Assembly (NCBI GenBank): GCA_049999805.1
Contig: JBNGIO010006247.1
Span: 1-47,725 of the forward strand
Direction of reading: 5' to 3'
Source of the DNA: Folioceros fuciformis
Taxonomy: Eukaryota
DNA: 47,725 nt
A program made the position numbers and the translations under genes. Below, one piece after another: positions 4,934 through 47,725 of this stretch. Under the pieces are notes generated by a model. It was not told where the DNA came from and did no database searches. It saw only the letters and a list, made by a program, of their open reading frames with translations. Within the stretch, counting starts at the first letter, position 1; each line of letters starts with the position of its first letter.

Positions 4934-5172
4934 AGGAAAGGATATCGAGTGCAAGGAGGTAGAAATCGACACTAGAACATGGGGAAAAGGTATCAAGTGC
5001 AAGGAGGTAGAAATCGACACGAGAACATGGGAAAGGGTATCGAATGCAAGAAGGTAGAAATCTACACGAGAACATGGGGAAAGGGTATGAGTGCAAGGAG
5101 GTAAAAATCGACACAAGAATATGGGAAAGGATATCGAGTGCAAGGATGTAGAAATCAACACGAGAACATGGG
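4934..5172. repeat. Minisatellite, five copies of a 47-48 bp unit
   Basis: The unit ggaaagg(a/g)tatcgagtgcaaggaggtagaaatcgacacgagaacatg repeats five times with substitutions. Confidence 0.9.
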
Positions 5173-13148: not shown

Positions 13149-15234
13149 TCACAATTTCTTCTCCTTGAAGGCATCACCACTAGGGACAGACCACTGGGCC
13201 CAATTACAATACACCGCGAGTGACACGAAGTGTACAAAACAGAAACAGGTGATTAAGGCATCGAAAAGGTACGGATATCTCGACGGAGCTGCGATTGTCA
13301 GATATGATACATGAAGCACCGTTCCGTAGCTGACAGAAAGCACAGCGACATAGTGTAGCACCCTGCTATACCAGTGATGCTTTTGGCTCTCATCTTCTGC
13401 CGACGGAGAGGCTGAGGAAACGAGATAGAACAGGCAGAGGAGTGCCAGGTAAGGGACAAATAGTCCATCCCTGCGAAGAAGTGGCAACATGGAAAACGTA
13501 GCCAGAGGTATAAACCACCTGATCACCGCTGGCTTCTCGAGGACTAAAAGACTGGCTGGAAGAACCGGTAGCAAAACTGACTTCTCGTGGACTGCAAACG
13601 TCACAATGAGATCGTACTCAGACTTCAGCTACACAGAAATCAAAGTGAAATCCCACTGCTAGCTACAAACTGTTTGCATGCACAACATGCCTCCAAAAGA
13701 CGGACACACCTTGATAGGCAAACAGGTAGAAAGCAAAAGAGCTGTTCAGCATGGCGAGAACAAAGCCCTTTGCACTGGGAGCCAATATCTGCTGAATCAT
13801 GGACGGCAGTGCTGCTGCCACAGTAGCTGCAAGCGACAGAGATGCTAATCTTTGCATGGGAAGCAGCTGTTTCCACTTGATGACAAGGGATGTCCCACAC
13901 CAGAAATTCGCCACATAATCCTCGTAGATGCCGCGCTCTAACGGAGCAAGGCGTAGCAAGACCTGCGTTATTTCAGGTCGCAACGCTGTCAAAAAAGTGG
14001 TTGGCAATTCGAATCCACCACTAGAAATTCACGGGACTAAGAACAATCCTGTCAATCCTCGAACCAACCTCTGATGCAGCCTCCTTCGAAAGATACGGCA
14101 ACCAGCAAAGCCCAAAAGTTGCGAGGACTGTGCATCCTAGTTGGAAAACCCCGAGTAAAGGGTGCCTTTTTTGCAAACAACGTCCTAAGAGATGGGCAAA
14201 AAACGCAGGAGCATAGTAGGCACTCATCTGCAGGGAATCGACCAGCCCCGTCATCAAGAAGGCCAGGTTCTCACCAAGGGAATTAGGGCTCATGATCATA
14301 AACAATGCGTACCTGCTTGTGATTCAAGGAAAGAGAGAACAACACACAGGCAAATAACTCTCTCCTTGCGAGAACGGCTGTGGCGGCGGCAGCAGCAAGT
14401 CCCAAGCTGATACAGTTATACTGTCGAGGTACCAAACACATGTCACAAGGTTTTGAAGGAGAAGACAACATAACTACGTATAGACAATTCAACCTGCATG
14501 AACTTTCTCACATGAAGAAACGAAAGACTTAAGACCTGAAAGTGCCCATGATCAATAAGAATGAGGGGCGGTTGAAGCAGAATGACGGCCAGCACCCAAA
14601 AACGTTCTTGTTCAGCTCGACTGCGGTAGTAGACCGCAACTAAACACAACACTGCTGGTATAAAGACAAGGAGGTCTGATGTCAAGACCGTCCAACGCAT
14701 GAGAATCTTGCTGCGCCCTTCACAAAACACGATCGTTAAATTAGAAGGTGTGCCAACCCCGTCGTCATTGACATTCAGCTGCAACCAGGACGGACCTGTT
14801 GGCCGACTCATAACCCCGGGAACTGTGAAGTGCAACTGCTTGGGGCTCGAACCACTGCATCATCAGACCGTGCACATAACTCTGGTATGCAGTGAGAGGA
14901 GGGTAATCGAGACCCCAGTAGCTGAGATCGTTGTCCACAGAGGGCCTGTACCACTCCCGAGCAGGAGTGTGCACGGTTATCTCCATCCAATGTCGCTGAG
15001 CTTCATAGTCACCAAATTTCGGACCATTTGCTGCCCCTGGTACAATGCAAGTCTGCACAACTTGACAACCAACAAGAATTGAGCAGGAAGGAGCGACAAA
15101 TCATGGAGAAGGAACCTACCGGAGTAGGAATGCAGGGAAACTAAGAGGCGAATGAACACTGCGAGTGCACACAGCATCGCCGTTGCAACCCCAGGTTGGC
15201 GGGAAACCCACCACCAGCTGCCCCCGTCCGCCAT
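13149..15234 (-). CDS. ALG6: Dolichyl-PP-Man9GlcNAc2 alpha-1,3-glucosyltransferase (ALG6/ALG8 family, ALG6 type), multi-exon
   Basis: PKFGDYEAQRHWMEIT, YWGLDYPPLTAYQS, LIDHGHFQ|YNCISLG, NHKQ|MSAYYAPAFF, RGIYEDYVANFWC, FAYQ|VHEKSVLLP and RYPYLF, joined across short GT-AG introns. Confidence 0.95.
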
Positions 15235-15469: not shown

Positions 15470-16046
15470 ATGGCGACAGCGGCAGCAGCTGCGGCAGCCA
15501 GGAATGGCAGGATCGCAGCTTCTAGGATCTTCGCTCCCTCTGGTGCTTCAACTCGTCCTCAGTCTTCTTGCCACCCGTTTCCTTGTTGCCTTGTGGCAAG
15601 GAAGGGCACATGCTGCTGTTTGATGATGCCGAAATTTTGATGCTGACACAGGGAGTTGCTTCCGGAAGCTGTTTACAATGTTTTGCTACATGAGTTGCAT
15701 CAGGACCGTCAGGGTTTCAGCTACCTTGCCACCTCCTACTCAAGCTTTGTGCCAGCCACAGCTGAGCTTGTGTGTCAGTCTTTGGATAGGGTAATCAGCT
15801 GAAGATGGGATGGTCCAATTGCATTGTGCAGGGCTACGCGCCGCGCATTCCACAAGAGCCAACCAGATGGGATCCAAGGCAGAGTCAAGCTACGAGGACT
15901 ACATCCACGCGGAGCACATGTACAACTTGCAAGCCATGAAGTACCGGAAGCTCAAAATGGGCGTGGGGGTTTTCGGAGCTCTTGCCGTCGGGTCTTTTCT
16001 CCCTGTCTTCGTTGTTCTGCACTCCAACAAGAAGATGGGGTTGTAA
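15470..16046 (+). CDS. Small mitochondrial single-TM protein, Arabidopsis At1g72020 (COX-X3)-like, 95 aa; exons 15470-15542 and 15832-16046
   Basis: An Ala/Arg-rich presequence is followed by YIHAEHMYNLQAMKYRKLKMGVGVFGALAVG...PVFVV, resembling the recalled YLHAKHMYNLDRMKY...VF.A...G.GVPIFAV. A phase-1 GT-AG intron joins the exons in frame. Confidence 0.8.
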
Positions 16047-16811
16047 GCATCAACATGGTCGGAGAGATGTAGCGGGTGGATTTCCGATGACTCCTGTGTA
16101 GCCCAGAGAGCTGTCACCCGGGAGGTGAAGCGTAGAGCAATTTTTTCTCCTGCTGATTTGTGGAATTCTCACAGTTTGGGGCTTCATCGGCTCGAGTATG
16201 TCACATGGGGTGAAGATAACGTACATATGTCTGAGTGTGCGACCCAAGCCTCGGCCAGCAAACTTGCGCTCTCGAATGTTTGTATGGTACGTGGCAAACC
16301 AGCATAAAAATCTGGTTTGCGCGGGTTTGTGATGCTAAGATGAGTCGTGGTAAACCACCATGGAAATGTGGTTTATGCTGGTTTGCCACGAAGCCCGGCT
16401 ACGTGCCCAAAGCTAAGATATTTTGGCCTACTCACCCACGCAACCAGCTGACCCAAGCATACTGTTACCAGGGCTTGGAATTCTTCTAATGTCCTCAGTC
16501 CAAGTAGCTCAGTTTCGGCATCTCTAGTGCTGGTGGTTCCCGCCTGCAAACTCTTCCTCAAGGTAAGGGTGTCAAATCGTTCATTTCCGTACTGCTTCGG
16601 ACTCGTTTCTGTGCACGTCTGCCGCTCGTGCCTTGGTGTGTTCTTGGTCTGTCTGAATAATATTCCAACTTTGGACAATCCAGATCTCAAAGGCTCATAC
16701 GCAGCTGCGCTTTCGAGATTTGTGGCTGGCTGGCTTGTTGTGATGCAAGTGCGGAGAACGCCGTCGCGAATCGTAATCGGGCGGAGTTCGTGATTTCTGG
16801 AATAAGCGGGA

Positions 16812-19129: not shown

Positions 19130-20230
19130 TTATGTGTTGCTATTAAGGAATGATAAATCAGCGGGCGTGTACAAATGGTCGGGGGAAGCTAGAACGCCGG
19201 GCGAGGTGACGGCAGTCGAGCAGGATGGCGACGCCGACGCTGATACTGGTTCCGAGAAATCGTGGTAGTCGGCGAAGCTGAGGGGCGCGGTGGTGGCCTG
19301 CTGCGACGTGTATTTACCGCCGTAGTGCGGGTCCGTGAGGCTGGGCTGCTGCGACTTGCGCAGGAAATCCCCGGCGTTGGTCTTCTTGTTCATGAGCACC
19401 AGGCCGCACGCGGACTTGCTGAGAAAGTAGCGGGTGCTGCCCCCGAGATGGCGGTCCAGGATGATCCAGGTGGCCTGCAGCTCCCCCGCCTCCCGTACCA
19501 CCACACTCTTGAGCGGGTGGCCTGCCGTGATGCGCACCTCCATGTTCAGCTGCAACCCAGCAGCAGCAGACTGTCAGGCAAGCAAGCAAACAAGGACGGA
19601 AGGAAGGAAGGAAGGAGCGGAGTCCGAGGCAAGGCAGTGCAATGCAATGCACTGTCCTGCAACGAAAGCAGGACATACCCCCTTCTTCTGGCAGTAGAGG
19701 CGGCGGGCCAGGAGCTTCTTCTGGTACTCCAGGAGGCGCTGGGAGATCTCGTGCTCCAGGACGCGAGGGTTAACGCCGCTGAAGCCGTTGATGTCGGCCA
19801 GGATGTCCATGCCCAAGGGGCTCTTGATCTTGGTGATGACGCCCAGCACAACAAGCGTGTCCCCGGGCCACAGATCCATGTGCAGGAGGCCCCAGTCCAC
19901 CGCCTCGAACGTGAGCTTTTTGGTGGCGTCGAATGCGGCCACCACCGTGTGGGAGGCCGAGTCCCCGCAGTGCGAGATGACCACGCTCGACATAGTGTGC
20001 AGGGACTGTGTCTCCTTGCTGCGCCCGTTCCCGTTGCTGCTGGAGCGAAATCGGAATTTGCTTGATGGGGCGGACGGGCCCAGCCGGGACAGCAGGGAGC
20101 GCATGGAGAAGCGGGATGGGGAGGAGCCTGCGCTGGCCGGAGATGGCGTCCTGGCTGCGCCCTTGTGCGCTGGAGGCGCCCCGGTCCCCACCTTCTCCGT
20201 CTTGAGCTTCTCTGGGAAGAACTTGATCAT
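19130..20230 (-). CDS. USP-like (adenine nucleotide alpha-hydrolase-like) domain protein, copy 1; exons 20230-19679 and 19549-19130 (true start may lie further upstream)
   Basis: VVAAFDATKKLTFEAVDWGL..PGDTLVVLGV and EVRITAGHPLKSVVVREA..QATWIILDRHL..CGLVLM resemble the N-terminal USP-like domain of SELMODRAFT_444075-type kinases. There is a GT-AG intron after KKG. Confidence 0.75.
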
Positions 20231-24322: not shown

Positions 24323-25429
24323 TTAGCAGGTATGCAATTCTTCGTCCGTGAAGGAGCAAAATGAATTGCAAGATGTGTCAGAGCAATCGCCAGATAAGTG
24401 TTGCAGAGAGTTGGTGGGTGACCGGGTGCTGACGTGTCCAAAACTATCTTGGACCTCGAGCTTTGCCTCGTGAGTAAGCGACGGACCGTCCTCCACGGCC
24501 CTTGTGGAATGGGAAAGAGTGGATATCCTGAGAAAGTTGCCATTCTCTGATCGCTTCTCCATGAGCACCAGGCTGCACTCTAATTCGTCCATCAAATATC
24601 TTTTATGCCCTCCCAGTTGCCAGTCCAAGATAATCCAAGTGGCTTGAAGCAGCATAGCCTCCCGTACCACCACCTTCCTGAGCGGATGGCCAGCAGTGAT
24701 CCGGACATCTAGATTGAACTGCACAAAGCAAGCCACGCCTCAATCAAGGAGTTCTCAGGTGGTAGGTTCTTCCGACTTTGAGTACGCGTTCACAACACTG
24801 TAGCTGTAGACAGCAATTTCAACAAACGTGACATACTAGACATCCCCAGCAGCAGTGGTGAGGAAGAGAGACATTACCCCTTTCTTCTCGCAGTACAGCC
24901 GACGGGCCTGCATCCGCTTTTGATACTCATTCAAGCGGGAACTGATTTCGTTGTCAAGCACCACTTGATTCACTCCCCTAAATCCATGGACATCAGGTAA
25001 GATGTCCACACCGAGAGGGCTCTTGATTTTGGTGATTACGCCCAACATAACAAGCGTGTCCCCAGGCTGCAGAATCTGCAGGAGACCCCAGTCCACAGCC
25101 TCGAAGCTAAGCTTTTTGGTAGCGTCAACCACTGCAACAACAACCTGCGAGCCAGTACTGTAGGCAACTTCGCCAGAGCTCGACATGCTATGAGTGGACC
25201 TGGAATCCAACATGGAGGAGCGGCGACTTCGCATGCTGTCGGAGCCCTCCAATTTTTTCTTCCTCGGTCTCATTCCTATCAGCGAAGCCAAGGTGTGAAG
25301 ACTGCCGTGGCCAGCAGGCTCAACATTGGTAGGTGGAGGGAGGTGACCGCTCCGCTCCGGAAAAAACTTTCGCAAATCCTCCTCCTCCAAGCTTGGAAAA
25401 CTGGCCTCACAGGGCAAACCTTCCGCCAT
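24323..25429 (-). CDS. USP-like domain protein, copy 2; exons 25429-24878 and 24718-24323
   Basis: VVAVVDATKKLSFEAVDWGL..QPGDTLVMLGVITKIKSPLG and DVRITAGHPLRKVVVREA..QATWIILD..ELECSLVLM. The intron is at the same position (after KKG) as in copy 1. Confidence 0.78.
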
Positions 25430-29041: not shown

Positions 29042-32000
29042 TGTAGGGTTATTAAAGCCCAATGTGCTTAGACTAATGTGATTAATCTAAGATTAGTGTC
29101 TAATTAAGTATCCTTAGTTTAGATTAGCTTAAGCTAATCTTTAGGAAGCTTCCTACATAGCTTCCTGTGAGCTTTTGTGAAGCTTCCTTAGGAGCTTTTC
29201 TAGAGGGTATGAGACCTCTCTTTCTCCTCTTCTCCTCTCTTCTTCTCTCCTCTCCTTCACCATGCTCCTCTATCGACCCTTTCAAGTGGTATCAGAGCCC
29301 GATTGTGGAGCAAGATGGTTGTGCCTATTGTAGGTACTATGAGCGGAGGTACAAGGCAAGAAGAAGGAGAAGCTAGGGCGCCGCTGCAGCCGGCAGCTAG
29401 GGTGCAGCCATCGGGCTAGGGCGTAGCCGCCGATTAGGGCGCCGCCGCCGGCTAGGGCTCCGACTAGGGTGCCACCGCCGGCTAGGGCTCCGGTTAGGGT
29501 GCCGCCGCTGGCTGGGGTGCCGGTTAGGGCACCGCCGCCGGCTAGGGTGCTGGTTAGGACGAAGCCGCCAGCTAGGGCGCCGGTTAGGGCGCAACCGCCG
29601 GCTAGGGTTAGGGTGCCAGCAGGGCGCCACCCGGGCGCCAACGAGGCGCCACTTGGCCACCAGCGGGGAGCCACCCGGGCGCTAACGAGGCGCCACTTGG
29701 CTGCCAGTAAGGCACCAAAGAGGCGCCAGCAGGGCACCACCCGGGCGCCAACGAGGCGCCACTTGGCCACCAGCGGGAAGCCACCCAGGCGCTAACGAGG
29801 CGCCACTTGGCTGCCAGTAAGGCACCAAAGAGGCGCCAGCAGGGCGCCACCCGAGTGCCGGCGAGGCACCAACAAGGCGGCAGCGAGGCGCCACTTGGGC
29901 ACCAGCGGAAGTGACACCTGGACGGCAGCGAGGCGCCAGCCGGCGATACCTGAACGGCAGTCGTTCGCCAGCGGGGCGCTAGCGAGGCAAGGATCTAGAT
30001 GAGCTTGCTCGGTCTACCATCATGCTAACATTGTCGAAGTCGGTCTACTTCAACGTGAAAGACAAGACCACAAGCTACGAGCTATGGCAGAAGTTGTGTG
30101 ACCTGTATGATGAAGATGAAGGAAGGGACGAGGATGTCCGATCATCTAAACGAGTTCAATACCATTTTCAGCCAGCTCTCATCTGAAGGTATCTCGTTTC
30201 CAGATTCCGTGAGAGCTATGTTTCTGTTGGTCACATTACCAGAGAGCTGGGACACCTTTCGTACAGCTCTGAGTAATTCGGCTCTTGCCAGTGGTCTTAC
30301 CGTTGTAAATGTAGAATGTAGCCTGTTAACAGAGGAGGTGAACAGGAAGAATATGGAACGTTCGAAAGGTTCCAATGCCCTCATGGTGAGAGGAAGGTCC
30401 ACTTCAAAGGGGAAGTACAAGGAGCGAAGTTCTTCCCATAGTAAATCTCGTAGTCGTAACAATGTTGAGTGTTACCATTGTCACAAGAAGGGTCACATCA
30501 GGAAGGACTGCGAGAAGTTCAAGAAGGACAAAGGAAAGGAGAAGAAACAAAGCGACACCAAGGCAAGTCCGAGTACCAAGCCTAACGAAGTGAATTTTAT
30601 TGACGATAGAGATGTTCTTATCTCTTCTTCCTTCGATTCTGCACAACTGACAACCGTGGAGAGTCACTTATTCGCTAATTGGATAATTGACTTTGGAGCA
30701 TCTTTCCATGTTACTCCGCATAGGGAGTGGTTTAGCACTTATGATGCTACTAGGAAAGTATGTGTTCGGCTTGGAAATAACTACGCGTGCAAGATTGCAG
30801 GCGTTGGTGATGTGCAACTGAAGTTCCTCAACGGATCTTCATTCACATTGAAGGATGTTAGGCATGTTCCAAAGTTGACAAAAAGCATGATTAGCGCAGG
30901 GCAGTTGGATGCCGCTGGCTATCACTGTTGGTTTGGAGATAATTCTTGGAAGGTCTCCAAAGGTTCTCTTGTGTTAGCTCGTGGATCGAAGTGTGGCACT
31001 TTGTACTCACTTCAGCTAACAACTGTCAAGGATCATGTGATTTGCGTAACGGAATAGCCAAGTGTTTCCTTATGGCATAGTTGGTTAGGACATATGTCTC
31101 AAAAAGGAATAAAGATCTTATCTCGTTTTGGTTACGTCCCTGCTTTTGACTTCTCCGATTTCTCCGTGTGTGAACACTGTTTGTATGGGAAACAGACGAA
31201 GTCACCACATGGAGCAAGAGGTAAACACAAAAGTAAACCTCTTGAATTGGTTCACAGTGACGTTTGTGGACCTATGCCCACTGTATCTTTAGGAGGTGCA
31301 TCTTACTTTGTCACTTTCATTGATGACTTCTCACGCAAGGTGTGGGTTTAGCCTTTGAGGAAAAAGGATGATGTTCTGACAGTGTTTCAGAAATTCGTCA
31401 CCCTTGTGGAGAATCAGTTTGGCCTCCGACTGAAGTGTCTAAGGAAAGACAATGGGGGAGAGTATGTCTCGAAGGCTTTCTAGTCATTCTGTGATTCCAA
31501 GGGAATCAAGAGAGAATTGACTGCACCGTATACTCCTCCCTAGAATGGTGTGGCTGAACGGATAAACAGGACCATCCAGGAGAGGATGCGTAGTTTATTG
31601 TCAAACTCTGGATTGCCGAATGGATTTTGGGCAGAAGCAGTGGTTACTACGGTGCATCTTATTAACAGATCTCCTAATAGGGCTGTGGATGAACAGGTTC
31701 CAGAGAAGATGTGGTCTAGAAAGAAGCCGTCATACAAGCATCTATGAGTGTTTGGCTGCGAGGCATACTACCATGTTCCTAAGGAGTTTCGAGACAAGTT
31801 GGCACTCAAGTCTAAGAAATGTATTTTTCTTGGCTATGGTGAATTTGGTGAGATGGGATACCGTCTGTGGGATCCAGAGGCCAAGAGGATGGTTCGCAGC
31901 AATGACGTGTTCTTCAATGAGACCAAGATGCACAAGAAGCCTACTCCAACTGTGGAGGTGCGACGGGTGGTCTTCCAAGAAAATGGACTTGACCATCCTG

Positions 32001-34152
32001 CGCAGGTTGAACGTCGTGATGTGCAGGAACAAGTTCCTCCACTTGTACAAGAGGAGAGAGTGCAACCAGCTCCGGTCGAGGAGCCATTGCTTCGTAGGTC
32101 AGGAAGGATCTCACGTCCTCCTGACAGGTATGTTGCATCTCTTGATTATGTCATGCAGACGGATTGTGGGGAGCCCTCTTGTTACCAAGAGGCCATGTCA
32201 GTGACTGATAAGGACAAGTGGCAGAAGGCGATGCAGTCGTAGATGGATTCGCTCCACAAGAACCAAACTTGGGAGTTGGTTTGGTTGCCTAAGGGCAAGA
32301 AGGCGTTGCCATGCAAATGGGTGTATAAGATGAAGGACATACCCCATTATGGCAAACCTAAGTACAAGGCACGATTGGTTGCGAAGGGTTTTAAGCAACA
32401 GCAAGGTATTGACTTTGATGAGATTTTCCCACCGGTTGTCAAAATGACCACCTTGCGATGTGTTCTTGGTCTGGTTGCGAGGCTCGACATGGAACTTGTC
32501 CAGATGGATGTGAAGTCGGCATTTTTGCATGGTGATCTCCAGGAAGAGGTATTCATGCATCAACCAGAGGGTTTCATTGAGAAGGGCAAAGAGAATCTGG
32601 TGTGCAAGTTAAAGAAGAGCCTTTATGGTTTGAAGCAGGCACTCAGGGAGTGGTATTTCAAGTTCCACTCATTCATGCTTTCTCAAGGCTACAAGCGTAG
32701 CGATGAGGATCATTGCCTCTATATGAAGCAAGCTAAGGATGGAAGCTTGCTCATTCTGGTCCTCTATGTGGATGATATGCTAATTGCTAGGACTAATAGT
32801 GATGAGATTTCAGCGTTGAAGTCAAAGTTAAATGGTCACTTTGACATGAAAGACTTAGGAGAGGCAAGCCATATTCTTGGCATGCATATTCGTCGAGACA
32901 GACAAAAGCATTTGCTGTACTTGTCTCAGACTGAATACATTAACAAGGTGCTTCAACGTTTCAATATGGAGAAGGGGAAGGTATTAAGTACTCCGTTGCC
33001 TCCATATGTGAAACTGTCGAGCAAGGATTGTCGAGCAAGCTCTGCGGAGGACAAAGTTGAAATGGAGAACGTTCCATACTCATCAGCTGTAGGGAGTTTG
33101 ATGTATGCAATGATTACTACACGTCCTGACATTGCCTTTGCAGTGGGAGTGGTTAGCAGGTTTATGTCAAACCCTGGCAGGAAGCATTGGGAGGCAGTGA
33201 AAGGAGTTATGAGGTACTTGAATGGTACGAAAGCTTTGTGCTTATGTTTTGGTAGTGAAGATGCATATGTCGTGGGATATACGGATGCTAATTATGCAGG
33301 GGATATGGACAAAAGGAGGTCCACATCAGGTTATGTCTTCATGTGCACAGAGAGGGGCAGTCTCATGGCGATCTCGTTTGCAATCGTGCATAACGCTATC
33401 TACCACAGAGGCCGAGTATGTTGTAGTGACTGAGGCGTGCAAGGAAGCCATGTGGCTTACTCGTTTAGCGGGAGATTTGGGGATCAAGGTTGAGCTGCCA
33501 GCGTTACATTGTGATAGCCAGACTGCTATCCAATTGGCGAAGAATCCAGTGTTTCATGCGAAGACCAAACATGTGGAAGTGAAGTACCACTTCATTCGAG
33601 AGGTGTTGGAAGACAAGAGGGTACAACTTGTCAAAGTTCACACCAGTCAGAACCCTGCAGATGTTCTTACCAAGGGGCTCTCTTCGGAGCAATTCGCACA
33701 AGCTCGGACACTCATGGGCATGAGGTAGACCACTCCCCTATGAAGGTAAATTGGCCTTTAAGGGGGCAGTTGTAGGGTTATTAAAGCCTAATGTGCTTAG
33801 ACTAATGTGATTAGTCTAGTTAGACTAATGTGATTAGTCTAGTNNNNNNNNNNAGTTAGACTAATGTGATTAGTCTAGTTAGACTAATGTGATTAGTCTA
33901 AGATTAGTGTCTAATTAAGTATCATTAGTTTAGATTAGCTTAAGCTAATCTTTAGGAAGCTTCCTGCATAGCTTCCTGTGAGCTTCTTGTGAAGCTTCCT
34001 TGGGAGCTTTTCTAGAGGGTATAAATACCCTCTTGAGCTCCCTTTGCAATAGAGCTGTGAGAGACACTATGAGACCTCTCTTTCTCCTCTCCTCCTCTCC
34101 TCCTCTCTTCTTCTCTCCTCTCCTTCACCATGCTCCTCTATCGACCCTTTCA
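29042..34152 (+). mobile_element. Ty1/copia LTR retrotransposon (copia-1), both LTRs present, defective
   Basis: 5' LTR 29042-29284 and 3' LTR 33771-34152 (TG...CA); PBS tggtatcagagcc (tRNA-iMet) at 29287; PPT agggggcagt before 33771; TSD gaacc/gtacc with one mismatch. Domains: gag CCHC (CYHCHKKGHIRKDC), protease WIIDFGASFH, integrase LELVHSDVCGP, RT LYVDDML and RNase H ADVLTK. Confidence 0.97.
29376..29990. repeat. GC-rich composite tandem array inside copia-1 gag
   Basis: 29376-29612 has alternating 18- and 12-bp TAGGG-initiated units. 29613-29990 has repeated gccacccgggcgc.aacgaggcgccacttgg blocks. Confidence 0.9.
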
Positions 34153-35990: not shown

Positions 35991-36715
35991 TAGGGGACTC
36001 TCTATCTCAGGAATGGTGTGACACTCGGGTAACACGCCCACAATGTGCAGTTCTGTACCCATGGAATACACCATCCGTGCCAGTGTCTTCTTTGTTGTTT
36101 TACAATATTGGGCGAATCCATGTTGGAGAACCAAAGTCTGGGTCTGATAGTGAGGAGACATGCTCCCTGTTCACATCCGCCATCCCACTTTTGTATGGAC
36201 CCATGATCTCCCCACCTTTGAATATGGAAACCCGTCTTCAACATGGAAGCTGTGAGTCGGAAGACCTCGGCCGGCCGGCACTTTCTACCGCCCCACTTGC
36301 ATAATGAAGGCAGGTCTACATATTCGGATGTGGACAGTGCGAGGATCATGTGCTACAACCCATTGCTACCGAAACTCATTACACAACTGTACATAATTCA
36401 GACAAAATTATGTCATAGTAGCACTAACGACATTACAAATGGTAATGGATCATGTTCATTGTTTCAGTGCACTCCTAACATTGTGACTATCTACCGTCAT
36501 CTATCTTATCCATGCTAATGGGTTTAGTCGATTACAACCCTCGCCCACTAACGGAAGGCAATGCCAGCTTCTCACTATCAAGGACACTCGATGTCCCAAG
36601 GTCAAGGTGTGTGCCAATGGTTCATCCCAAAATGGCATGCCACCCCGTTGCACCCGCGGCCGCTTCTTGGTAACCTACATACAGGCACGCAGAGGCCTTT
36701 GCCGACAAGCATCTA

Positions 36716-37585
36716 CTATGACTCATCATCACTGATTGTCGTCTGCAAGTTACTTGGGGGTTCTATCATCCCACACAACTCATGGAGTTTGTCTCGAATC
36801 CCCCTTTTATCAGTAGCATAAAGATGCTTTCTTGTTGTGAGGTTGAAATCGTAAAAGAGGATAATAGTCTCATCCATAAACATTTCTTGAACATTTTTGG
36901 GGTACTTGGCCTTCTGCCCTTGTTGTCTTGCCCTATCGCCATTATGCGTTCTATTGCTTCTCACAATGAATTTTTCTACATACTTCCCTTCATATGCATC
37001 TGTATGTTTAGTTTAGTACCAATGGACGAGCAAGCTTGGCCTAGCAACTTCCACTTGCACTTCCTCCACTTTTCCTATTCAGAAAGGCTGGTTGTGTGTA
37101 TCTGTGCAACATGGTGTAGCGATGAACATTCCCTCCCGTATTTCAGACACATCACCGTTCACGCAGCCCATCTGTTGTTGCTGTTGTATGGGCCGCCGGT
37201 AGTTGCCTATATACATGTACCTCCGTGGGAGTTCCTTCAACACTACCTCTTCAAGATATGTTTCATCAAGCACTTACAATGGTTCAATAGTCTCCTCAGT
37301 TGCATCCCTCAAAAACCATTTCCACGGAACTTATAGAGAGCTTTATTTTGTTCTCTACCATGACTGCTACTGCATGTTGGTTTCCCCAAAACTCATCATA
37401 CCACAGCCTGTCTTGCATAGAGATGTATGTAGGCAACTCGGCAAGGCCCTCCTTCAAGTGGGTAACCTTGGTTACCGGTTGCATATTAGTATCACTTCCT
37501 TTCTTGCCCCTTGTTTAAAGAGAGAGGAGTGGTGCAAAAGAGACAGTGGCCATGAGGACAAATTTCAAAAACTCCAGGCCTCCTT
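36716..37585 (-). pseudogene. C-terminal fragment of a probable DNA-transposon-derived protein, truncated by copia-2
   Basis: The in-frame read EIREGMFIA...QPF*IGKVEEV...LLVHWY*...IILFYDFNLTTRKHL...DDES* has sparse stops. The superfamily was not determined. Confidence 0.45.
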
Positions 37586-37944
37586 TGATACTAAACCTTC
37601 TAACATAGAACACAAGAGAATGTTGTATATCAAAAGTAAAAATGTTCAATAAACAATAGTCTTATATAGTCTTAAGTAAACCCTAGGTTAAACTAACTAG
37701 CCTAACTTGTGAGGTTAACTAACCAAGAGTTAACTAACTAGGGGTTAACTAAACCCTAGCATCCCCTCTTAACCGAACAAGTTAAAGACAGGAGAAGTTA
37801 TTGAGCACACACGCGGAGGCTGTGTTCGACGCTTGAGCTTCTCAGGCATGGCATGAGGAGACTGTGAAGCATGGGGATATCTATCCCCCTTGCGCTGGTC
37901 ACTCTGAGCATCATAGGTGTTATTGGAGTTGCGTTGTTGCTACC

Positions 37945-38319
37945 ATGGCTTGGTCGATCAGCACAGCCCCCAGCAGCCAGAGACGACCAAGAGAAGAGTC
38001 TGTGGAAAGAAGTACCATCACCGAAGAGGAGAAGCTGAGGAGGAACTATTGGCCATCGTAGGTGGACAGAGCCCTAATCGAGCACCTCCTTCGGACCAAG
38101 AAAGCATGCGAGGAGCTAGAGGAAATGCTGAAATCTACCAAGGCCAAGACTCTGGAAGTGCGGAACTTGGTTGCATCTACTCCAGCCAGAGACACACACT
38201 CGCCCTCACTATTAGATGTTGAGATCAGAGTTCTCGTTTGCGAGCTAAGGAGGCTCGGCTATGTTGGCCAAGTCGACGAGGGAGAGGCACACAGTCAGCT
38301 CCGCGTTGTGGAGAGGTAG
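37945..38319 (+). pseudogene. Antisense extra ORF in the 3' internal region of copia-2 (one internal TAG)
   Basis: accATGG at 37945. ORFs 37864..38061 and 38062..38319 are in the same frame, separated by a single TAG. Confidence 0.4.
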
Positions 38320-41300
38320 GTCTGCTGAAGACAGCCCACGACTGAGTGGTTGTCGATAAGCTTCATCCACTGAACTATCTTCAAGCTAACACGCTGTTGT
38401 ACACTTGTAGAGAAGAACATAGCACAGAGATAGCGAACACAACTGCAGCTTGGGAGTACTAACCTTGTGCTGCCCTTAGACTACAGTAGGCAGGCTTCTA
38501 GGATCTGGTAGGAGTAGGTGAGACAAACTCCCTCAACCCCAAGGCTGCTAAGTGTTTAAAGTGTTTCTGTCTGGACAGACCTTTAGTAAACAGATCAGCT
38601 GTATTCTTGTCTGTGCTAACATACTGCACCTTCACAAGTCCTCATTCAGCCACATCCCTAATCTAATGGTGGTACAACTCAATGTGTTTGGTACGGGCAT
38701 GGAAACGGGGGTTGGAAACCAAGGCAATGGCAGACATGTTGTCACAAAACAAATCAGTTGGTCCAGGCTGAGGTAAGTGAAGAGACTCAAGAAACTAACG
38801 CTCCCACTCTATTTCCTTACAGGCCTTTGTTAAGGCCTTGTACTTAGCCTCTGTGGACAAAAGAGCTAAGGACGTTTGCTTTTTGCACGACCAGTTGACA
38901 GAACCTGAGGCTAGTAGGCATGCATAAGCGGACAAGCTCTTACGAGAATCTGCATCCGAGGCCCAGTATACGTCGACAAAGGAAGTAAGTAAAAATTATC
39001 TCTTGCCACTGCTTGTGTAATGTAATCCATAACTCCAAGTTCCACGCAGGTAACAATACACACACTTAACTACTGCCCAGTGGGATCTGCCTGGATTCTT
39101 CAGGAATTGAGAGACCATACTCACAAAATAGCTGATGTCAAGAAACAGCAAGAAACATTAGGCAACCCACGGCTTCAGCATAAGGCACTCCAAGCATATC
39201 CAACTCCTCCTCAGCAGTTTGAGGGGATTGCTGAAAGGTCAGCTTTTCCCCCATTGCTGAAGGTGTGGCAACTGGACGAGCCTCATGTAAGTTGAATCGT
39301 TTTAAAATATCCTTTAAATACTTAGTCTGGTCCAGAATGACTGTTCCTTGAGATCTATCTCTGAGAATCTGGATACCCAAACAATATTGCAATGGCCCTT
39401 GATCAGTCATTTTGAATTCTGACCTAAGCAAGTCCTTGATCTTATTGAGTTGCGAGATGCTATTGCTCAGGAGGATTGCATCATCAACATAGAGAGCAAG
39501 CACCACAAATAGTCCAGCATCAGCAAGATAAAAGACATTAGAGTCAACTGAGGACTGAACAAAGCCAGACTTGCGCATAAACTTCATTATGCGTTTATAC
39601 CAGGCTTGAGGTGATTGTTTAAGTCCATAAAGTGTTTTTAGCAGTTTGCACACTTTATGAGGCCATCATTTACTAACGAACCCCTCTGGCTGGTGCATGT
39701 AGAGCTCTTCCTCAAGCTCACCATGAAGAAACGTGGTGCACGCATCCATCTGATGCAACTCAAGATCAAACTCAGCTGCCATAGCTAGCAGGATCCTTAC
39801 TGAGGGGGACTTCACAACTGGCAAGAAAGTATCTCCATAGTCAATCCCAGGAATCTGGCTAAACCCCCTCGCAACCAACCTGGACTTATATCTTGAGACC
39901 ATCAGCATTCAATTTTGTTTTGAAAACCCATTTACATGAGATAGGCTTGCGGCCAGGTGGTAAGTCAGCTAACTCCCAAGTGTCGTTCTTCATTAGGGAG
40001 TTGAACTCATCATCAATGGAGACACGCCAATGCTTCCTGTCAGGACCATTAAGCGCTTCTTCATAGCTCTATGGATCAGGCCTAACCTCAGGTACGTGCA
40101 CATCTGTAACATGAGCTGATTGTCTTCTAAAATCAATGAAGTGATATGGTGTCTCAACCCAATTTTCACGTGCTTTGTGTTCTCTCGTAGGGTAGCGAGA
40201 TGAAGGGGGCTCCTCAACAGCATTCTGATCTACAGAAGCATCATCTCCTGCATCTGAAGTAGCACCACCCACAGCAAGTTCATCTAAAACATGTGAGTCA
40301 ATCGACTGGACAGACTAATAATCTCCTTCATCCTAAACTATTACATAATCTGGATTGGCTGCATCATCGTGAACTGCCTCATTATCCTCATCTTGAACAG
40401 GGTCTAACTCAGCTGCTACAGAAGCATCAAGTTGTTCCTCACCGTTAGACTTAGGGTAGTTGTGAAACACTTGTGTTGGTTCTAAGTTTAAACCAGAAAG
40501 CACAGCATCACAAATACTGGTAGGATCTACTGGATAGAGCTGCTCTACAAAGGAATCTAAACAAGGAGAGGTGAATTCAGTGAAGGTAGCACTTCTGGAT
40601 AAGGTAATCCTTGACGTCACAAGATCCAGAAGTTTATAAGCCTTAGACTCTACAGAATAACCTACAAAAAGAAGAGGCTTAGACCTATCGTCTAACTTCT
40701 TTCTTTTATGTTCAGGAACAAGAGCAAAGGCAGGTGAACCAAAGACTTTCAAGTGGAGAAGACTAGGTTTTCTTCCCCAAAATGCCTCATATGGAGTTCT
40801 ACCTGGAAGAGCTGACGTGACCACCCTATTTAAGATGTAAGTGGCACACACAACTTCTTCTGCCCATAAAGACTTGGGGAGAGCAGACCATGACAGCATG
40901 CTCCTTACCATGCCCATTAGAGTCTGATTTTTACGCTCTATAGCTCCGTTCTGTTGCTGCAAATAAGGGACTGAACGTTGCCTAACTATGCCATGCGCAT
41001 TAAAGAGATCATCAAACTATCTGCCAGTAAACTCCCCTCCGTTATCAGTACAAAAGCACTTCACCAGCTGACCAGTCTATCATTGCACCATTTGTATCCA
41101 ACTGGAGATAGTCTCGAACACATCGCTCTTCAACTTGAGGGGAAAAGTCCATGGGTACCGAGAGTAATCGTCCGTCAAGGTAAGATAGTACTCCGCTCCT
41201 CCAAGCAACTTTACAAGCAGCTTTCCAGCAATGTCAACATGTATAAGCTCTAGAACTTGCTTTGCTTGGGTTGCTTGTTTGTTCTTAAAGGGCAGTTCTT

Positions 41301-44093
41301 TTTGCTTGGACAGGATACAAGAGCTGCAAGCTTCAAGATGCTTGAAACAAGGAGGTAATTGCTCACGGTAGCAAGAAGAGTTAGCCATCAAATCAAGTTT
41401 AGAACAATTAACATGGCCCAACCTAGCATGCCACAAATTAGCCTGCACATGAAAAGCAGTAAGCAAAGCTCTAACCTTTTACTTATGTACTGTGACAAGT
41501 TGGTCGAGATCATCTACTAGAATTGCTCGAGCAACATGACTCTTTGGATCTGTGAGATGATAGACATAGCAGGTTTTGTCTTCAAACCTAAACCCATACT
41601 GACGACTGCGAGCAATGGCCCTAATCGACAGAAGGTTTTTACTAATGTCTGGAACAAACAGCACATCCTCCAGCAATAAGGAAGACCCATCAAGAAGAGG
41701 TATGTTCATAGAGCCAAACCCCTTGACCTAAACACCTCGTGAGTCGCCCACAAAAACTGAATGTGGTGATGTTTGCTTGTGAAATGTCGAGAGAAGAGCC
41801 CACGTTTGTTGCAGATGTGCGTCGTGGCTTTTGAGTCGACAAACCATTGTGAGGAATTCCATTTGGAAAGTGTCAGGCAGACTGTAAGGGCTGTAGCTGA
41901 ACTACCAGTCTTCGGCTGTGAGCTGTGATTAGAACCAGCAGACATCTTCTCTTTAGAAGTGGTATGAGCCTCCTGCTTGACTTCACGCTTAGGTTCACTA
42001 GCCTTCTTTTTGCGGCAGTCATGTTCCCAGTGCCCTGGGATCTGGCACCAATTACAGTTGCCTTGTCTTTTCGTCGAAGAGGATGGAGATGAGGTAAAAT
42101 CACTGGATTGCTTCTTGCCTCCTTTATTATCTTTCCCCTTCCAAGGTCCTTTGGCTTTAGTATATAGAACCTTGTCGCCTATGAAGCGAGTGCCTGACTT
42201 GCTCCGGCTTTGGCTTTGCTCCTCTTGCAGGAGTGCCCCAATAACTTCATTGATGTTCAAGGGGAAGGGTTGACCAGCAGCTATAGCTTTGTAGGAGTCA
42301 CGAAGAGCTGAATTCTGACTGGAAACAAAATTCTCGTAGGATGAAGGCAAGCTGGACAACAGTTGGGCAATCGCGTCCAAATCAGACATCTTGCTCCCTT
42401 GCGTGGCCAGTTGTGCCCGCAGGGTGCGCATCCGAGTGACGTGTGCCCAATAGAGTCCCCTTCTTTCATCCTCAAACCATAGAATTTGTTTCGTACAGAA
42501 ACCAAGGTAAGTATGTTGTTAACTTGGTAAGTCTTCGTGAGCTGATCTGAAACTTCAGCAGCTGTCTCTAGAAAGTCCACTTCAATTACTGTCACTTCAT
42601 CAAGTCCAGACAGTAAGATAGCAAATGCGACTTTGTTCCCCTTCTTCCACTTCTCAATCTCATCAGCTGATCCTAGTGGGTTCGATTTTGTAGGATCAAG
42701 AAGGGAGCCATCTACATACTCCCAGACATCACGAGCATTGAGGTTAGCTTTCATTCGAGCTCTCCAGCTCTCAAATCGGGATTGCTTTCCATCAAATCGA
42801 TCCTTCTCCTTAAACTCTCCTGAGTAACTATACATTATTGCAAGATTAGCCGAAGAAGGATTGGTCGCCATAGTGGTCGCCATAGTCTTGATGTTGCTCA
42901 CAGATGGCATGGGTGGGTTGGTGTATAACCAAGAGAAGACATCTTCCTCTGAATCACTATCACTATCAGCAGGGGACTTCAGCATAGCTTGGACTACAAA
43001 CGAGGACCAAAATGTACACTCGGGAGGAGACCAACCCAGAACTGAAGCGGTAAGCCAAAAGTGGAAGTTAGGTCAAAAGAAGTCTCAAAATAAAACAAAG
43101 CAACTTAACCCTAAAAACTTTGTCCCATGACAATAACTGACATGACTGCTTGTACCTGCAGGTGGACGTGGAAGGAATAGACCTATGGGCTGTAGACACC
43201 TGGAGCTCTATAGGTCTGACGGCTAACAACTATTTTTCTCACGAATGTTCGTCTAAATCTGCTGAACAGGAAGCTTCACAGACAGTCGCAAAAGATCTGT
43301 GAATTCCACTCATTCAAAAAATCAGAAATGCATTGATCCTCCATTCTCCTGAGATGGAGCCTTAGGTGGGATCATTATTGGCACATATAGGGCAGCCACA
43401 GGTGGGCAAACTAAATAATCATGTGCTCCTTCTCTAGAATCGCCATGAACTCCAAGAAGAGTTGTAATCACTGACGAAAACTGCTGCAAGGCCATTGTAA
43501 CTTGTTCAAGTGCATATTTGATGACGAACATCCCAATTCCTGTGTTGGAAGAGACTCGCTGCAAAAGAGCCTGAATCTCCTTCTGTCTGTCATGAAATTT
43601 CCTGTCAAAATCGATGCTTGACTTCCTGTTAAAATACTGACATCCTCAATGGTGGTAACAAGTGTTACTTTTTCTACTCGACTCACCACTACTCGAAGGC
43701 TGTCTTAAAGAAGAGGAAGGGCGGCGACATGACAAACCCTATAGCCTAGAAAAATCTAGACAGGGGGTGTTTTCCCCAACATTGGATACATGGTACCTAT
43801 TTCTATTTTTCCGAGGCATTTCATAGTAGTGGATAGTTAAGGAATAGGCTGCCCAGATCCATTACAAACACTAAATGTGCTCTGCGCAGGCTGGCGAAGA
43901 AGAATTTTCAGCCAATCTCTACCTTCATATTCTGTGAGGGTGGAGGTGTTAGGTTTCGTAGAGCGGAGAGCTTTGGAAAATCATATACTTGGCAAAAAAT
44001 GATAATATATATTAAACAATCAACAAAAGGGTTAAGTACTCCATAGACTCAGTAGCTGTTCATTTGTGTCTATCTTATTAGGGCTAACTCCAG

Positions 44094-44121
44094 ATATATA
44101 TATATATATATATATATATAT
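44094..44121. repeat. (TA)n microsatellite in the copia-2 leader
   Basis: About 14 uninterrupted AT dinucleotides. Confidence 0.9.
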
Positions 44122-44893
44122 GACCTATACTTAGCACATGAGTAAAACCCTAGTGACGTGGTTACATAGACCGGGTAGGGTCTTAACAGGAGGTAGGCTA
44201 AAAACGCTTCCTTCACTTGCTGTGCCTAGCACATTGTGTCCGAAGTGGATAGATTACAGCGAAAGACTCAGAGGATCAAACTCTGCTCTGATACCATGAT
44301 ACTAAACCCTCTGACATAGAACACAAAAAGAATGTTGTATATCAAAAAGTGAAAATGTTTAATAAGCAATAGTCTTATATAGTCTTAAGTAAACCCTAGG
44401 TTAAACTAACTAGCCTAACCTGTGAGGTTAACTAAACCCTAACAGTATTCGCTCGAAGCTCGCCAACGGCATTGCTCACAGACGATCCGCTGATCTTCCC
44501 ACGAGGCAATACAACGTCGCAGAGCTCTCACTAGCTGCAGACTATGCTGCTGTATGTATGGGATCCAGCTGTGCAAATGACAGAACACATGGTCAGAGCG
44601 ATCGAGCAAAGGCAAGGGTTGTCGATGTTGCTGGATTGGTGGAGGGTATGGCAAACACAGAGGGTGGTGATTGCTTGCAAGACGACTCCGAGCGTACAGG
44701 GTCCATGGAGCGTGGCTTGGCCGGCCACACCCCGCTTGGTGGGGGGTATGCAGTGTCGTCCCCAGACATGGGGGGCACTCCAGCTATGGGAGACGATGAT
44801 TGTTACATTCTGGACCGATAGCAGCCCCGACGTGGTAGCTCCCCTTAGGCACCGGCGAGAGGGAGACTGAGTCAATCAGGTGCTACGAACGCA

Positions 44894-46151
44894 ATGGGCC
44901 TTCTTGCAATTGCAACTGCCGCCGAGGCGTACGGGGCACTGGTGGCAACTTGGGAGGCAGTGACTCGCTATCTACAGCAAGCAAAGGAGGCAGCATGCTA
45001 CGTAGTGCCCCCGAAGAAGCTGAAGCCGAAGGTAGAGGCCAAAGTGTTTTTCGATATGGTGGACGAGGCGAAGGAGAGGAAGGGTGGGGATGAAGCAAAG
45101 CCAGAGCACACCGTTGTGCTGGCCGAGCTACAGACCATCCTAGACAGAGGGATAGGAGCCGGGGACAGCGTGGGAAGGGCCTTGGTCCATAGGCTAGTAA
45201 CCATACCGGGGTTCAAACTTTATGACGTTGCAACCATCCAGGGGTTTATAGCGGAGCGGACGTCGCCAGCTACTACGGTCATTAGAGTACTCCACAAAAT
45301 GGAACCCAGTATGGACCTGGCAGCGGCAAAGCATGAAGACCTATGGGATGCCTGGGCCGCAAATAATTTGCAGGGACGGTGCACCAGTTTGATATGCTCC
45401 CGTTGCAAACCCGCCACCGCTAGTGGCTCCGCATGCGAGAGAAGAGGGCGCAAGAGGTCGCACTACCATTTAGGGAGGTTGAGGAAAGGAACCTCCATGC
45501 TGCGCAGGAGGCCTGCGACGCGGCAAACGGTGCGATGCGTAGATATGCTCTTACCAACCACACATTGCAGCCAATTGCGGCTCATCTTTGCAGAAGAGCA
45601 CAACGGTCCCCTACGCTGAAGGTGAGGTGCACTTGGTGGTGGTGTGGGTGCCACCATGAACAACCAGGGTTTGTGGTGGGGATGGTGGCTAAGCCAAGGG
45701 TGCGTGGTGGCGGGTGCAAGTGGAGGCAGGTCGGGAGTGTGGGGCGTTGTTCGACCATTTCAGACACCAAGAGGAGCACATGGATGTGTTCTCGGAGCTA
45801 AAGGTTGTGTACATCACTGGCCAAGGGGGAGGAGGGTTGGTGGAAGTAGATACGGTAAACGCGGGAGGTCCATCCAGGAGGTGCATAAGCAAGGCGTGGC
45901 AACAGTTCTGGCTGAACCCCGAGTTCTTGAACTGTGTGTTTGATGCAAGAGACAGCCATGGCCCAAGCAGGTTGCTGTACCACATTAGGCAAGGGAGTCA
46001 CACCACTTGCTTGAGCGAGACAGTTGTGAGTGCCCTCAAACCACGGCCAAGTTCACGGCATTGTATGCCAATGTATGGGATTTGTGTTGACATTTGCGGT
46101 GCACAATGCAGGCACGGTTCTTTGGGTTCCTGTTGTACATGGTGTTGGTGA
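44894..46151 (+). pseudogene. GC-rich fragmented ORF set including a HECT-N-lobe-like segment
   Basis: ORF 44894..45619, then ELKVVYITGQ...DTVNAGGPSRRCISKAWQQF (~45795-45910), which resembles the HECT L.V.F.GE.G.D.GGP.RE.F pattern. Confidence 0.4.
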
Positions 46152-47149
46152 CCGGCGTGCAGGTGAGCATGCTTGGTCGCCGGGCCTCGGCGGACAGCCA
46201 GCGATGCCGCCATGGCTGCCATTAAGAGGCTACAGATGGGCCTGCAGTGTGGGCGGGGAGGACGGGCGGATCTGCCTTGTGCAGTGGGCCGGCCATTGAT
46301 TGGCAACCCTGCAAGCGGAAATGGAGGTGCGATGGAGGTGCAATGGAGGTGACGACAGGAAATGAGAGCTATCGTGAGGAGTGTAGGCAACGGGTGAAGG
46401 AGTCATAAATGTTAGGCGGCGCTGTCGCTTTAACAAGTGGATGGCTGAGATGTGGAGGCGATGATGGGTGGCTTGCACACAGTCGCTGGCTTTTGGGTCG
46501 GGCTTGTCCAGTTCAACTAAGCCATACGTGTCACACATGGCACGAGTGTATGTGGATCTTGCTTGTGCGGCCAATAGGGGGTGCAGTGCCATAACAAGCG
46601 CGGCCATGAGGAGCTGGCACAGTGTGATCAGAGGCGGCACATCCTGCGAGCGTAGTGTGATCGTACGTGGGAGCAAGAGCAGTGGCACTGCGGTCGCACA
46701 AGGGAGGAGGAGCGGCCGCAAAGTGATTGCAGGAGGGGGCAGGAGCAAGCTCAGTGCCATCGCTAGTGCGGGCCCTGAGAAGGGCAGGACAAGCGGCAGT
46801 GGGAAGGTATCATCGACTAAGTGGCAGGCAAAAGGAGGCGTGGGGAAGAGGAGGCAAACGCAGTCCCGGGTTTTAGTGTAGGGGGAAGCCTGTGAGGCGA
46901 CCCAGACATACAGGGTGAGTGCGGTGCACGCGACGGGGAAGGACAGAGGTTCCGCACAGATGCATCATATTGCACAATACAGTGGCTGTTGCATGGTCGA
47001 AAGCTGAAGGACGTGGTGGGAAGGTGATGTGAAGGAGAAGGAAGGGAGGCCAGCAACGGCTTGATAGGTGAAACCCGTGGGGTAGGGGTGGTGAAAGCTG
47101 CGTTGGTGGACGCGGGGTACAAAGTGCCGAGGAGGAAAATAGACGCTGC

Positions 47150-47604
47150 TCTGCGGGCATTGCAGCCGGAGGCGATGGCAATGAGAGCGAGGGTGCGCAT
47201 CAGGCGGGTGTAATACACAAATCAAATGCCATTGTACATGTGGCATATGGACCATAAGTGCGGGCAAGAATTGTAGTTGATTGATGGGTTGCGGTGCAGA
47301 GTGCAGGTGCCTACTAATAGTGGTTGTGGCTGCAGCCTACGACAAGATGTATATGTACCACATGAGGGTGCACGCAGCGATCGATGGTGCCACCCACTAC
47401 ATTACGTGGGCAGTGCTAGCAAACAACGAGAGGGCAGAAACTATCTACGACGCATATCAAGGGGCTGTGGAGAAGTTTGGACACCCACAACGAATGCGGT
47501 TTGACTTTGCTGCTGAGCACAACTTGGTGGAGGCAGATTTCATGCGTGCAAGACCAAGGGAGAACGACAGCAACTTCATAACAAGGCCTACCGTGCACAA
47601 TCAA
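47150..47604 (+). mobile_element. IS3EU-like (rve-type) DDE integrase/transposase core, apparently spliced and degenerate
   Basis: RARVRIRRV*YTNQMPLYMWHMD, then VHAAIDGATHYITWAVLANNERAETIYDAYQGAVEKFGHPQRMRFDFAAEHNLV...FITRPTVHNQ, followed by a GTGAG donor at 47605. The third catalytic residue is not visible in the window. Confidence 0.7.
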
Positions 47605-47725
47605 GTGAGGCTGCAAGGGGTGACGATAGTGGGAGGATGACGTTGCAGTCGTGGTGGCAATGGTGGTGTGTGTGTGCAGGCAGTGTGCGACCATGACAGC
47701 ACCCGTGCAGTAATGTCACACCCTC

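Follow-up and report, generated by a model that had tools for sequence, protein, structure and literature searches.

We investigated the right-hand end of a 47,725-nucleotide stretch of Folioceros fuciformis DNA (GenBank assembly GCA_049999805.1, contig JBNGIO010006247.1, positions 1 to 47,725 of the forward strand), referred to as the window. A GC-rich segment at this end carries exons of a transposase gene of the IS3EU/GingerRoot type, preceded on the same strand by exons of a second, putatively HECT-like gene. The segment is probably a dead, internally truncated copy of a DNA transposon from the plant branch of IS3EU/GingerRoot, with the HECT-like gene as its second gene. Its features are as follows.

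44445..47725, plus strand: GC-rich segment, as much of the element copy as the window contains, between a copia long terminal repeat (LTR) on the left and the window end on the right.
44849..45619, plus strand: 256-amino-acid open frame from the list of open reading frames (ORFs), possibly the N-terminal exon or exons of the HECT-like gene.
45759..46025, plus strand: HECT-like exon A, the start of the N-lobe (KVVY...AGGPSRR...), followed by donor GTGAGT; tblastn covers 45759-45983, and the 5' border is approximate.
46026..46111, plus strand: predicted intron, GTGAGT...TGCAG, phase 0 at both ends, from splice-site context and reading frames.
46112..46162, plus strand: HECT-like exon B (ARFFGFLLYMVLVTGVQ), followed by donor GTGAGC; best match in the Selaginella moellendorffii model P0154 at residues 460-478, E 0.032.
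46165..46166, no strand: breakpoint relative to other copies in the host; contigs diverge behind 46165.
47028..47253, plus strand: transposase exon before the core (...GYKVPRRKIDAALRAL...MWHMD); tblastn of rva_4 proteins covers 46989-47261.
47254..47335, plus strand: predicted phase-1 intron, donor ATAAGT, acceptor CTGCAG.
47336..47604, plus strand: transposase core exon (YDKMYMYHMRVHAAIDGATHY...RMRFDFAAEHN...VHNQ), Pfam rva_4; second catalytic D codon at 47503-47505.
47605..47725, plus strand: start of the next intron (GTGAGG), with the junction CAA/GTGAGG at 47604/47605 and 121 bases to the window end.

The GC content of the segment is 0.565 and its GC skew +0.232, compared with 0.482 and +0.004 in the rest of the window, and none of the 412 sliding windows of the segment's length reached either value. 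The shift begins at 44445, directly outside the outer end of a 148-bp copia LTR (44297-44444), bearing out a first-pass annotation made from the sequence alone, which had described an abrupt change to GC-rich DNA after this LTR. No second copy of the segment was found elsewhere in the window.

Pfam assigns ORF 47281-47640 to PF24764 (rva_4, 'Integrase core domain') with 43.9 bits (cut-off 26; E 2.9e-11), whose match to rve reaches E 4e-4 only. The integrase pattern described in the first-pass annotation, H.AIDG...NN.A.T...AV.KFG.P.R.R.D...E...VHNQ, is present as written, and WHMD lies at 47241-47252, with the first catalytic D codon at 47250-47252. An exhaustive HMMER search with the integrase exon found 396 relatives at E<=1e-3, the long ones being canonical rva_4 proteins (E 1e-55 to 1e-72) that carry helix-turn-helix domains at the N-terminus; named canonical relatives come from a chytrid, a mushroom and a jellyfish. 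A word-indexed protein search among longer proteins with the same exon gave no match. Metagenome contigs were scanned with the exon alignment, yielding 25 loci, most of them from one AT-rich family (GC 0.27-0.38). The nearest relatives are only about 43-53% identical to the window core; L001 shows 52% identity to the core exon by tblastn and 53% in the trimmed tree alignment. The exon at 47028-47253 aligns with the pre-core stretch of rva_4 proteins carrying HTH_21/HTH_7, and the window's N-terminal exons were not identified.

In the alignment of Kojima and Bao 2023 (PMC10045372), Repbase IS3EU proteins read LWHIDGNHKLIRW..IHGGIDGYSR..NN.A.TV..G.P..VRSD.G.EN..GRSVHNQRIERLW, and the Selaginella lepidophylla row SL_GR-020 reads LWHMDSYDKLAVYGFRFHGIIDGATRFIV..LNKRPVTIFNNYARAVKKYGHPYRLRADAAREHNLIELDM..GPSTHNQRIEHQW (alignments of PMC6839031 and PMC10045372). 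The window motifs MWHMD..YDKMYMYHMRVHAAIDGATHYIT..NNERAETIYDAYQGAVEKFGHPQRMRFDFAAEHNLVEADF..PTVHNQ track the plant (SL_GR) pattern closely, including D.A.EH instead of D.G.EN. Common to the window transposase and the GingerRoot SL_GR rows, in SL_GR letters, are LWHMDSYDKL..YG.R.HG.IDGAT.., ..NK....TI.., G.P.R.R.D.A.EH.L.. and ..HNQRIE.., and SL_GR-014 shares about 90% identity, as judged by eye, with the relative P0003 (E 9.4e-17). A quick maximum-likelihood search (132 rows, 89 columns, unrooted, without retrotransposon rows) placed the window with P0003, S. moellendorffii P0036 and metagenome loci in a 34-row group with a Shimodaira-Hasegawa-like approximate likelihood ratio test (SH-aLRT) value of 99, the other side of the split holding 98 canonical rows, including the named fungal ones. 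SH-aLRT values for the window's clade with P0003 and P0036 were 94 and 99. Grouping with retrotransposon integrases, the outcome that the first-pass annotation had set against its own reading, was not observed: rva_4 far outscores rve, the best tblastn match of the core exon to the window's two copia elements has an E value of 16, and the motifs are those of the IS3EU and SL_GR rows.

By these sequence comparisons, the transposase is a member of the IS3EU/GingerRoot superfamily and of its plant (GingerRoot) branch. The rva_4 match and the motifs of the Repbase IS3EU rows confirm the earlier assignment to an IS3EU-type transposase; the superfamily, there described as mostly from animals and fungi, is not known from these alone, GingerRoot having been published in 2019 from lycophytes and bryophytes (PMC6839031). 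An IS3EU-type element in a non-seed plant is thus already known under that name. GingerRoot elements are large, 3.9-12.9 kb, and were reported as absent from seed plants and charophytes (Cerbin et al. 2019, PMC6839031), and IS3EU and GingerRoot were joined in one lineage, 'IS3EU/GingerRoot', with 99% bootstrap support (Kojima and Bao 2023, PMC10045372).

The transposase gene is damaged and appears to be interrupted by introns. Similarity ends after ATG GAC C (47253) and picks up again behind CTGCAG at 47336, which argues for a phase-1 intron; in 13 aligned fragment relatives, similarity starts at the same residue, AY(D/E)KL. At the same codon position, L004 reads GAT T/GTAAGA and the window GAC C/ATAAGT, and the donor G of the window's intron at 47254 appears to be mutated (AT, not GT). 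After the core, similarity breaks off behind NQV in 9 of the 27 aligned relatives, the outcome expected if a GT donor follows the Q codon; in seven it continues into RIE. The window ends at 47725, before the exon for the catalytic E (RIE..W); P0015, P0026 and L001 carry HNQRIEHWW. Residues 133-181 of the S. moellendorffii model P0155 align with the pre-core exon (E 2e-4) across an in-frame stop, the TAA at 47211-47213. We infer the splice pattern of both genes in the window from sequence.

Upstream on the same strand, the motif LKVVYITGQGGGGLVEVDTVNAGGPSRR lies at 45798-45881 within ORF 45693-46151, which matches no Pfam family. This motif, given in the first-pass annotation as L.V.Y..GQ...D...GGPSR, is real and beyond chance: exon A aligns with residues 389-423 of P0154 (KVVYITGQGGGGLVEVDTVNAGGPSRRCISKAWQQ against KVVYASEIGGALVWEESTIDAGGPHAKAIREAVRQ, BLASTP E 2e-5) and with L011:2844-3068 (BLASTP E 4e-10), and tblastn of the window's HECT-like ORF against the 25 fetched loci found L011:2805-3050 at E 7.5e-8. 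Exon B is collinear with exon A along P0154. The 256-amino-acid frame at 44849-45619 matches no Pfam family and has a weak BLASTP match to the corresponding ORF of L011 (E 0.014). BLASTP of the window ORF against P0145, another S. moellendorffii model, gave no match, because the P0145 gene model lacks that exon; P0154 has it. Logan contigs of two runs (X1 and X2) from one sample of the host organism were mapped on 36000-47725. Four contigs of X1 and three of X2 carry unlike sequence behind 46165, a point three bases inside the intron that follows exon B; given this divergence and the lack of a C-lobe match in the window, the remainder of the HECT-like gene has presumably been lost from the window copy. 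This copy is thus damaged by the in-frame TAA, the AT donor and the break of the HECT-like gene at 46165.

The HECT label comes through relatives. Two long S. moellendorffii models were among the integrase relatives, one being P0145 (EFJ24363.1, 1200 amino acids), in which an rva_4 transposase (E 2.3e-10) is joined to a HECT-like C-terminus. With residues 780-1200 of P0145, all 30 of the 30 nearest clusters in the Atlas search, which measures language-model similarity, were HECT (best 0.95, 173 shared features), and a search with the same region found four S. moellendorffii models: P0145, P0154 (747 amino acids, UniRef name 'HECT domain-containing'), P0155 (1299 amino acids, rva_4 E 1.8e-13) and P0156. 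Pfam HECT scores P0154 at E 2.2e-4 (21.4 bits) and P0155 at E 3.7e-4 (20.7 bits), in the C-lobe at profile positions 213-301 of 306. In L019, the last exon of the metagenome family reads ..IRIPKSFTCFNELKPPIS.. and scores Pfam HECT at E 0.02 and P0154 residues 674-722 at E 0.005. P0154 also has a match, at residues 375-417, to the N-lobe block of L011 (E 3e-4). A three-row C-lobe profile searched against PDB retrieved 18 sequences at E<=10, 16 of which were HECT ligases, matched at their C-terminal catalytic region. The catalytic cysteine of the C-lobe (..FTCFNEL.. or ..STCTRE..) is kept in P0154, P0155, L019 and L011, is Y in L009 and is lost in L010. These sub-threshold profile matches and the language-model similarity, each individually weak but convergent, suggest that the upstream ORF belongs to a very divergent HECT-like gene.

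The canonical HECT N-lobe starts with the motif L.V.F.GE.G.D.GG..RE, which the HECT-like family resembles. The family also has the domain order of canonical HECT E3 ligases (HUWE1, Rsp5/NEDD4, E6AP, AREL1; PF00632), with an F.G.LL..A helix after the N-lobe start, and its C-lobe ends ..P.a.TC.n.L.LP.., including the catalytic cysteine, as HECT ligases do in the HUWE1 alignment. Unlike them, it is extremely divergent, multi-copy and transposase-linked, and the window copy lacks the whole C-lobe.

Both genes occur together in other loci. Two of the five S. moellendorffii gene models, P0145 and P0155, hold both domains in one model. In the AT-rich metagenome family, whose copies are 85-93% identical at the nucleotide level, the HECT-like ORF of L011 precedes the integrase exon by 5.2 kb on the same strand, a stretch of about 9.5 kb that includes both genes is collinear between L009 and L011, L019 has the HECT-like gene upstream of the integrase on the same strand, and in L010 the HECT part is inverted. 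The linkage that the first-pass annotation had proposed therefore recurs in four related metagenome loci besides the two S. moellendorffii models. No additional loci came up with small hidden Markov models (HMMs) built on the two HECT blocks, and a word-indexed protein search with the N-terminal ORF of L011 gave no match. Within the HECT-like gene of L009, about 750 bp (3285-4031) lie between 30-nt inverted repeats (83% identity) and are not in L011; this looks like a small inverted-repeat element inserted in the transposon.

A number of results weigh against a HECT-bearing transposon, and those that bear on the HECT label come first. Window ORFs gave nothing against Pfam HECT (PF00632) at E<=1 or E<=10, the Atlas search with the window's HECT-like ORF returned noise only (0.86), and no match to a C-lobe or catalytic cysteine was found within the window. 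In the relatives, the Pfam HECT scores of P0154 and P0155 fall below the cut-off of 23.9 bits; the best PDB match of the C-lobe profile, HUWE1, is marginal at E 0.041; phmmer searches of PDB with P0145 and P0154 returned no HECT protein; and an AlphaFold2 model of P0154 from a 4-row alignment was unusable, with a mean predicted local distance difference test (pLDDT) score of 30.2. The companion gene could accordingly be real and linked and still not be HECT, its motifs (..GGP..R.., ..TCFN..) mimicking that domain, a reading favoured by the missing above-threshold Pfam match, the phmmer result, the failed model (pLDDT 30) and the Atlas noise at 0.86. However, three independent methods point to HECT in the right sub-regions and in the right order, with the N-lobe start upstream and the cysteine-bearing C-lobe at the very C-terminus, and 16 of the 18 PDB profile matches are HECT C-lobes; we regard mimicry as quite improbable. 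The HECT fold anticipated in the first-pass annotation is upheld insofar as the upstream ORF shares homology with the beginning of a domain scored as HECT in related sequences, but the ORF itself has no direct HECT match.

Further contrary results concern the pairing of the genes. The Selaginella models run from transposase through a Ser/Thr/Pro-rich linker to the HECT-like part, whereas the window and the metagenome family have HECT before transposase. Block HMMs and Pfam found no HECT-like ORF in the flanks of five other-family loci (L008, L015, L017, L018 and L025), a weak negative, as the Pfam scan covered 150 of their 159 ORFs of at least 75 amino acids and the exon-sized ORFs of the positive loci mostly miss too. 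All four metagenome copies have stops or substitutions, stops or damaged sites mark each of them as well as the copy in the window, and no provably intact two-gene element was seen. The different gene order in Selaginella and the five loci lacking the ORF would fit a GingerRoot transposase whose HECT-like neighbour is a captured host gene fragment (Pack-type) or a mere neighbour, and host gene fragments, with introns and exons, were reported in 22 of 77 intact GingerRoot elements (PMC6839031). Capture nevertheless seems unlikely to us: the same divergent HECT-like gene stands beside the transposase in three lineages whose cores are about 33-45% identical, which fits long co-descent rather than recent capture; its sequence is remote from the canonical HECT domains of hosts, scoring below the Pfam cut-off; and in L009 and L011 it lies inside a collinear repeated unit. 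Host-type genes occur within 5-6 kb of diverged integrase fragments lacking a detectable HECT-like gene in L015 and L008: an aquaporin (MIP, E 2.5e-71) at 3054-3833 on the minus strand of L015, and a Ras/Roc GTPase exon at 15895-16323 on the plus strand of L008.

The ends of the element are the last point of this kind. Inverted-repeat and inverted-match searches found no terminal inverted repeats in L009 or at the left homology border of L009 and L011, and neither terminal repeats nor target duplications were seen in L009, L011 or the window copy, the last of which abuts the copia LTR at 44444 on the left and has its right end outside the window. Published GingerRoot elements have TA..TA termini, 100-150-bp inverted repeats and a 6-bp duplication; both ends of the window copy lie outside view. 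Since no termini were found, and since the S. moellendorffii annotators modelled ordinary genes, one might think of a host locus that is not mobile, with a domesticated integrase-derived gene beside a HECT-family gene. We give this very little credence, as the sequence is multi-copy in the host with 90-99% variants, the metagenome organism holds many copies at 85-93%, S. moellendorffii has at least five paralogous models, and stops or broken splice sites mark the window copy, L004, L009 and L011.

The host copies were seen among the Logan contigs: 623 of X1 and 595 of X2 matched 36000-47725 at 90-100% likeness, those of X1 comprising 180 at >=99%, 194 at 95-99% and 249 at 90-95% identity. Seven distinct contigs overlap at 47418 and four to six at 45299, indicating that the element family is multi-copy and diverged in the host genome. 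This state argues against a recent horizontal arrival, and horizontal acquisition of the element, one of two origins offered in the first-pass annotation, is not favoured. Of its two-gene transposon with a ubiquitin-ligase-like cargo, the pairing is supported by the linkage, but the copy is dead and truncated, and 'cargo' may understate a conserved companion.

The bordering copia element (37586-44444, minus strand) has LTRs of about 150 bp. Its LTR at 44297-44444 pairs with 37586-37722 at 93.5% identity, with a 91-nt core at 96%; the left LTR has an internal duplication of about 30 bp, and an (AT)n run lies at 44097-44122. Pfam gag, pre-integrase, SH3 and RVT_2 domains are found on the minus strand at 39-43 kb. 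The complement of TGGTATCAGAGC, that is, the primer-binding-site complement, is at 44285-44296, inside the copia element next to the LTR; TGGTATCAGAGC is what we take to be the initiator-tRNA-Met primer site. The outer flanks, TCCTT and GTATT, show no 5-bp target duplication, and insertion of the copia element into the GC-rich element therefore cannot be claimed.

Other features of the window were also recorded. A second copia element (29068-33985, plus strand) has gag, Pol_BBD and RVT_2 domains, a 97% repeat pair (29068-29174 and 33879-33985), a run of N near 33851, and, just inside its left end, a GC-rich block (29399-29919) of 30-bp and 11/22-bp tandem repeats. Another GC-rich stretch, at 19-21 kb (GC about 0.6), lies between direct repeats at 19440-19874 and 24609-25073 (two pairs, 72-75% identity, spacing about 5.2 kb), which may be an old LTR pair. 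An ordinary intron-bearing host gene is represented at 13152-14859 on the minus strand by two ORFs of exon size, with matches to the ALG6/ALG8 glycosyltransferase family (E 1.7e-20 and 5.4e-15). Short tandem arrays lie at 3905-4076 (two units of 86 bp, 98%) and 4982-5169 (about four units of 47 bp, 82-85%).

A HECT-like companion gene of GingerRoot appears to be undescribed. No such second gene is described in the accessible text of the GingerRoot and IS3EU papers (PMC6839031, PMC10045372); in the former, 'HECT' and 'ubiquitin' occur 0 times in the main text and not in Supplementary File 1, while the supplementary tables of elements and captured genes might mention a second gene. Full-text literature searches for HECT with IS3EU, GingerRoot, 'integrase core', DNA transposon, transposase or Selaginella returned no relevant paper. 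Accessory genes in IS3EU elements are a known principle, of which a HECT-like gene would be a variant: according to the available text of Kojima 2025 (PMC12730594), fungal IS3EU families carry TET/JBP dioxygenase and alpha-kinase genes beside the transposase, in varying order and orientation, and these were proposed to aid against host control. The fungal families, from rusts and truffles, have TET/JBP or kinase genes and defined termini (TAYGG..CCRTA, 6-bp duplication; PMC12730594), whereas here the companion is HECT-like, the hosts are plants, and such termini were not found.

The comparison also bears on the published relationships of GingerRoot. Its closest relative was reported to be a 'Gypsy-like' Selaginella integrase (PMC6839031). 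The row in question, 'SL-Gypsy-003' of Supplementary File 1, labelled there as a Gypsy-like retrotransposon integrase, is by eye identical letter for letter to residues 159-255 of P0145 and 43% identical to the window transposase; P0145, by contrast, scores rva_4, as given above, and its model has no reverse transcriptase. The proposed GingerRoot-Gypsy link may thus rest on a mislabelled GingerRoot-type sequence.

For an intact element, the predicted transposition chemistry and ligase activity would be as follows. An intron-bearing gene would encode a DDE transposase with an RNase-H-like integrase core, its catalytic residues being the D of WHMD, the D of RFDFAAEH and the E of RIE..W in the next exon; by analogy with published GingerRoot and IS3EU elements, it would excise the element at its terminal inverted repeats, and insertion would leave a 6-bp target duplication. 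The second intron-bearing gene, upstream on the same strand, would encode a very divergent HECT-like protein, a putative ubiquitin-ligase-type accessory factor that might mark, for example, either the transposase or a factor through which the host restricts or silences the element. Whether the plant IS3EU branch has long had the HECT-type ligase gene as a conserved companion, kept from lycophytes to moss-like hosts and manipulating the host ubiquitin system, is a more tentative proposal, possible in our view yet on the doubtful side.

The window copy is a dead fragment with no functional consequence. GingerRoot and IS3EU elements are little studied, and the plant members have been described only through their DDE core. 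If the proposal is true, a conserved HECT-like partner would be a plausible means for these elements to act on host proteins, and this would be, as far as the literature searches show, the first DNA transposon lineage with its own E3-ligase-like gene; ubiquitin ligation would then join the few accessory activities that eukaryotic DNA transposons carry.

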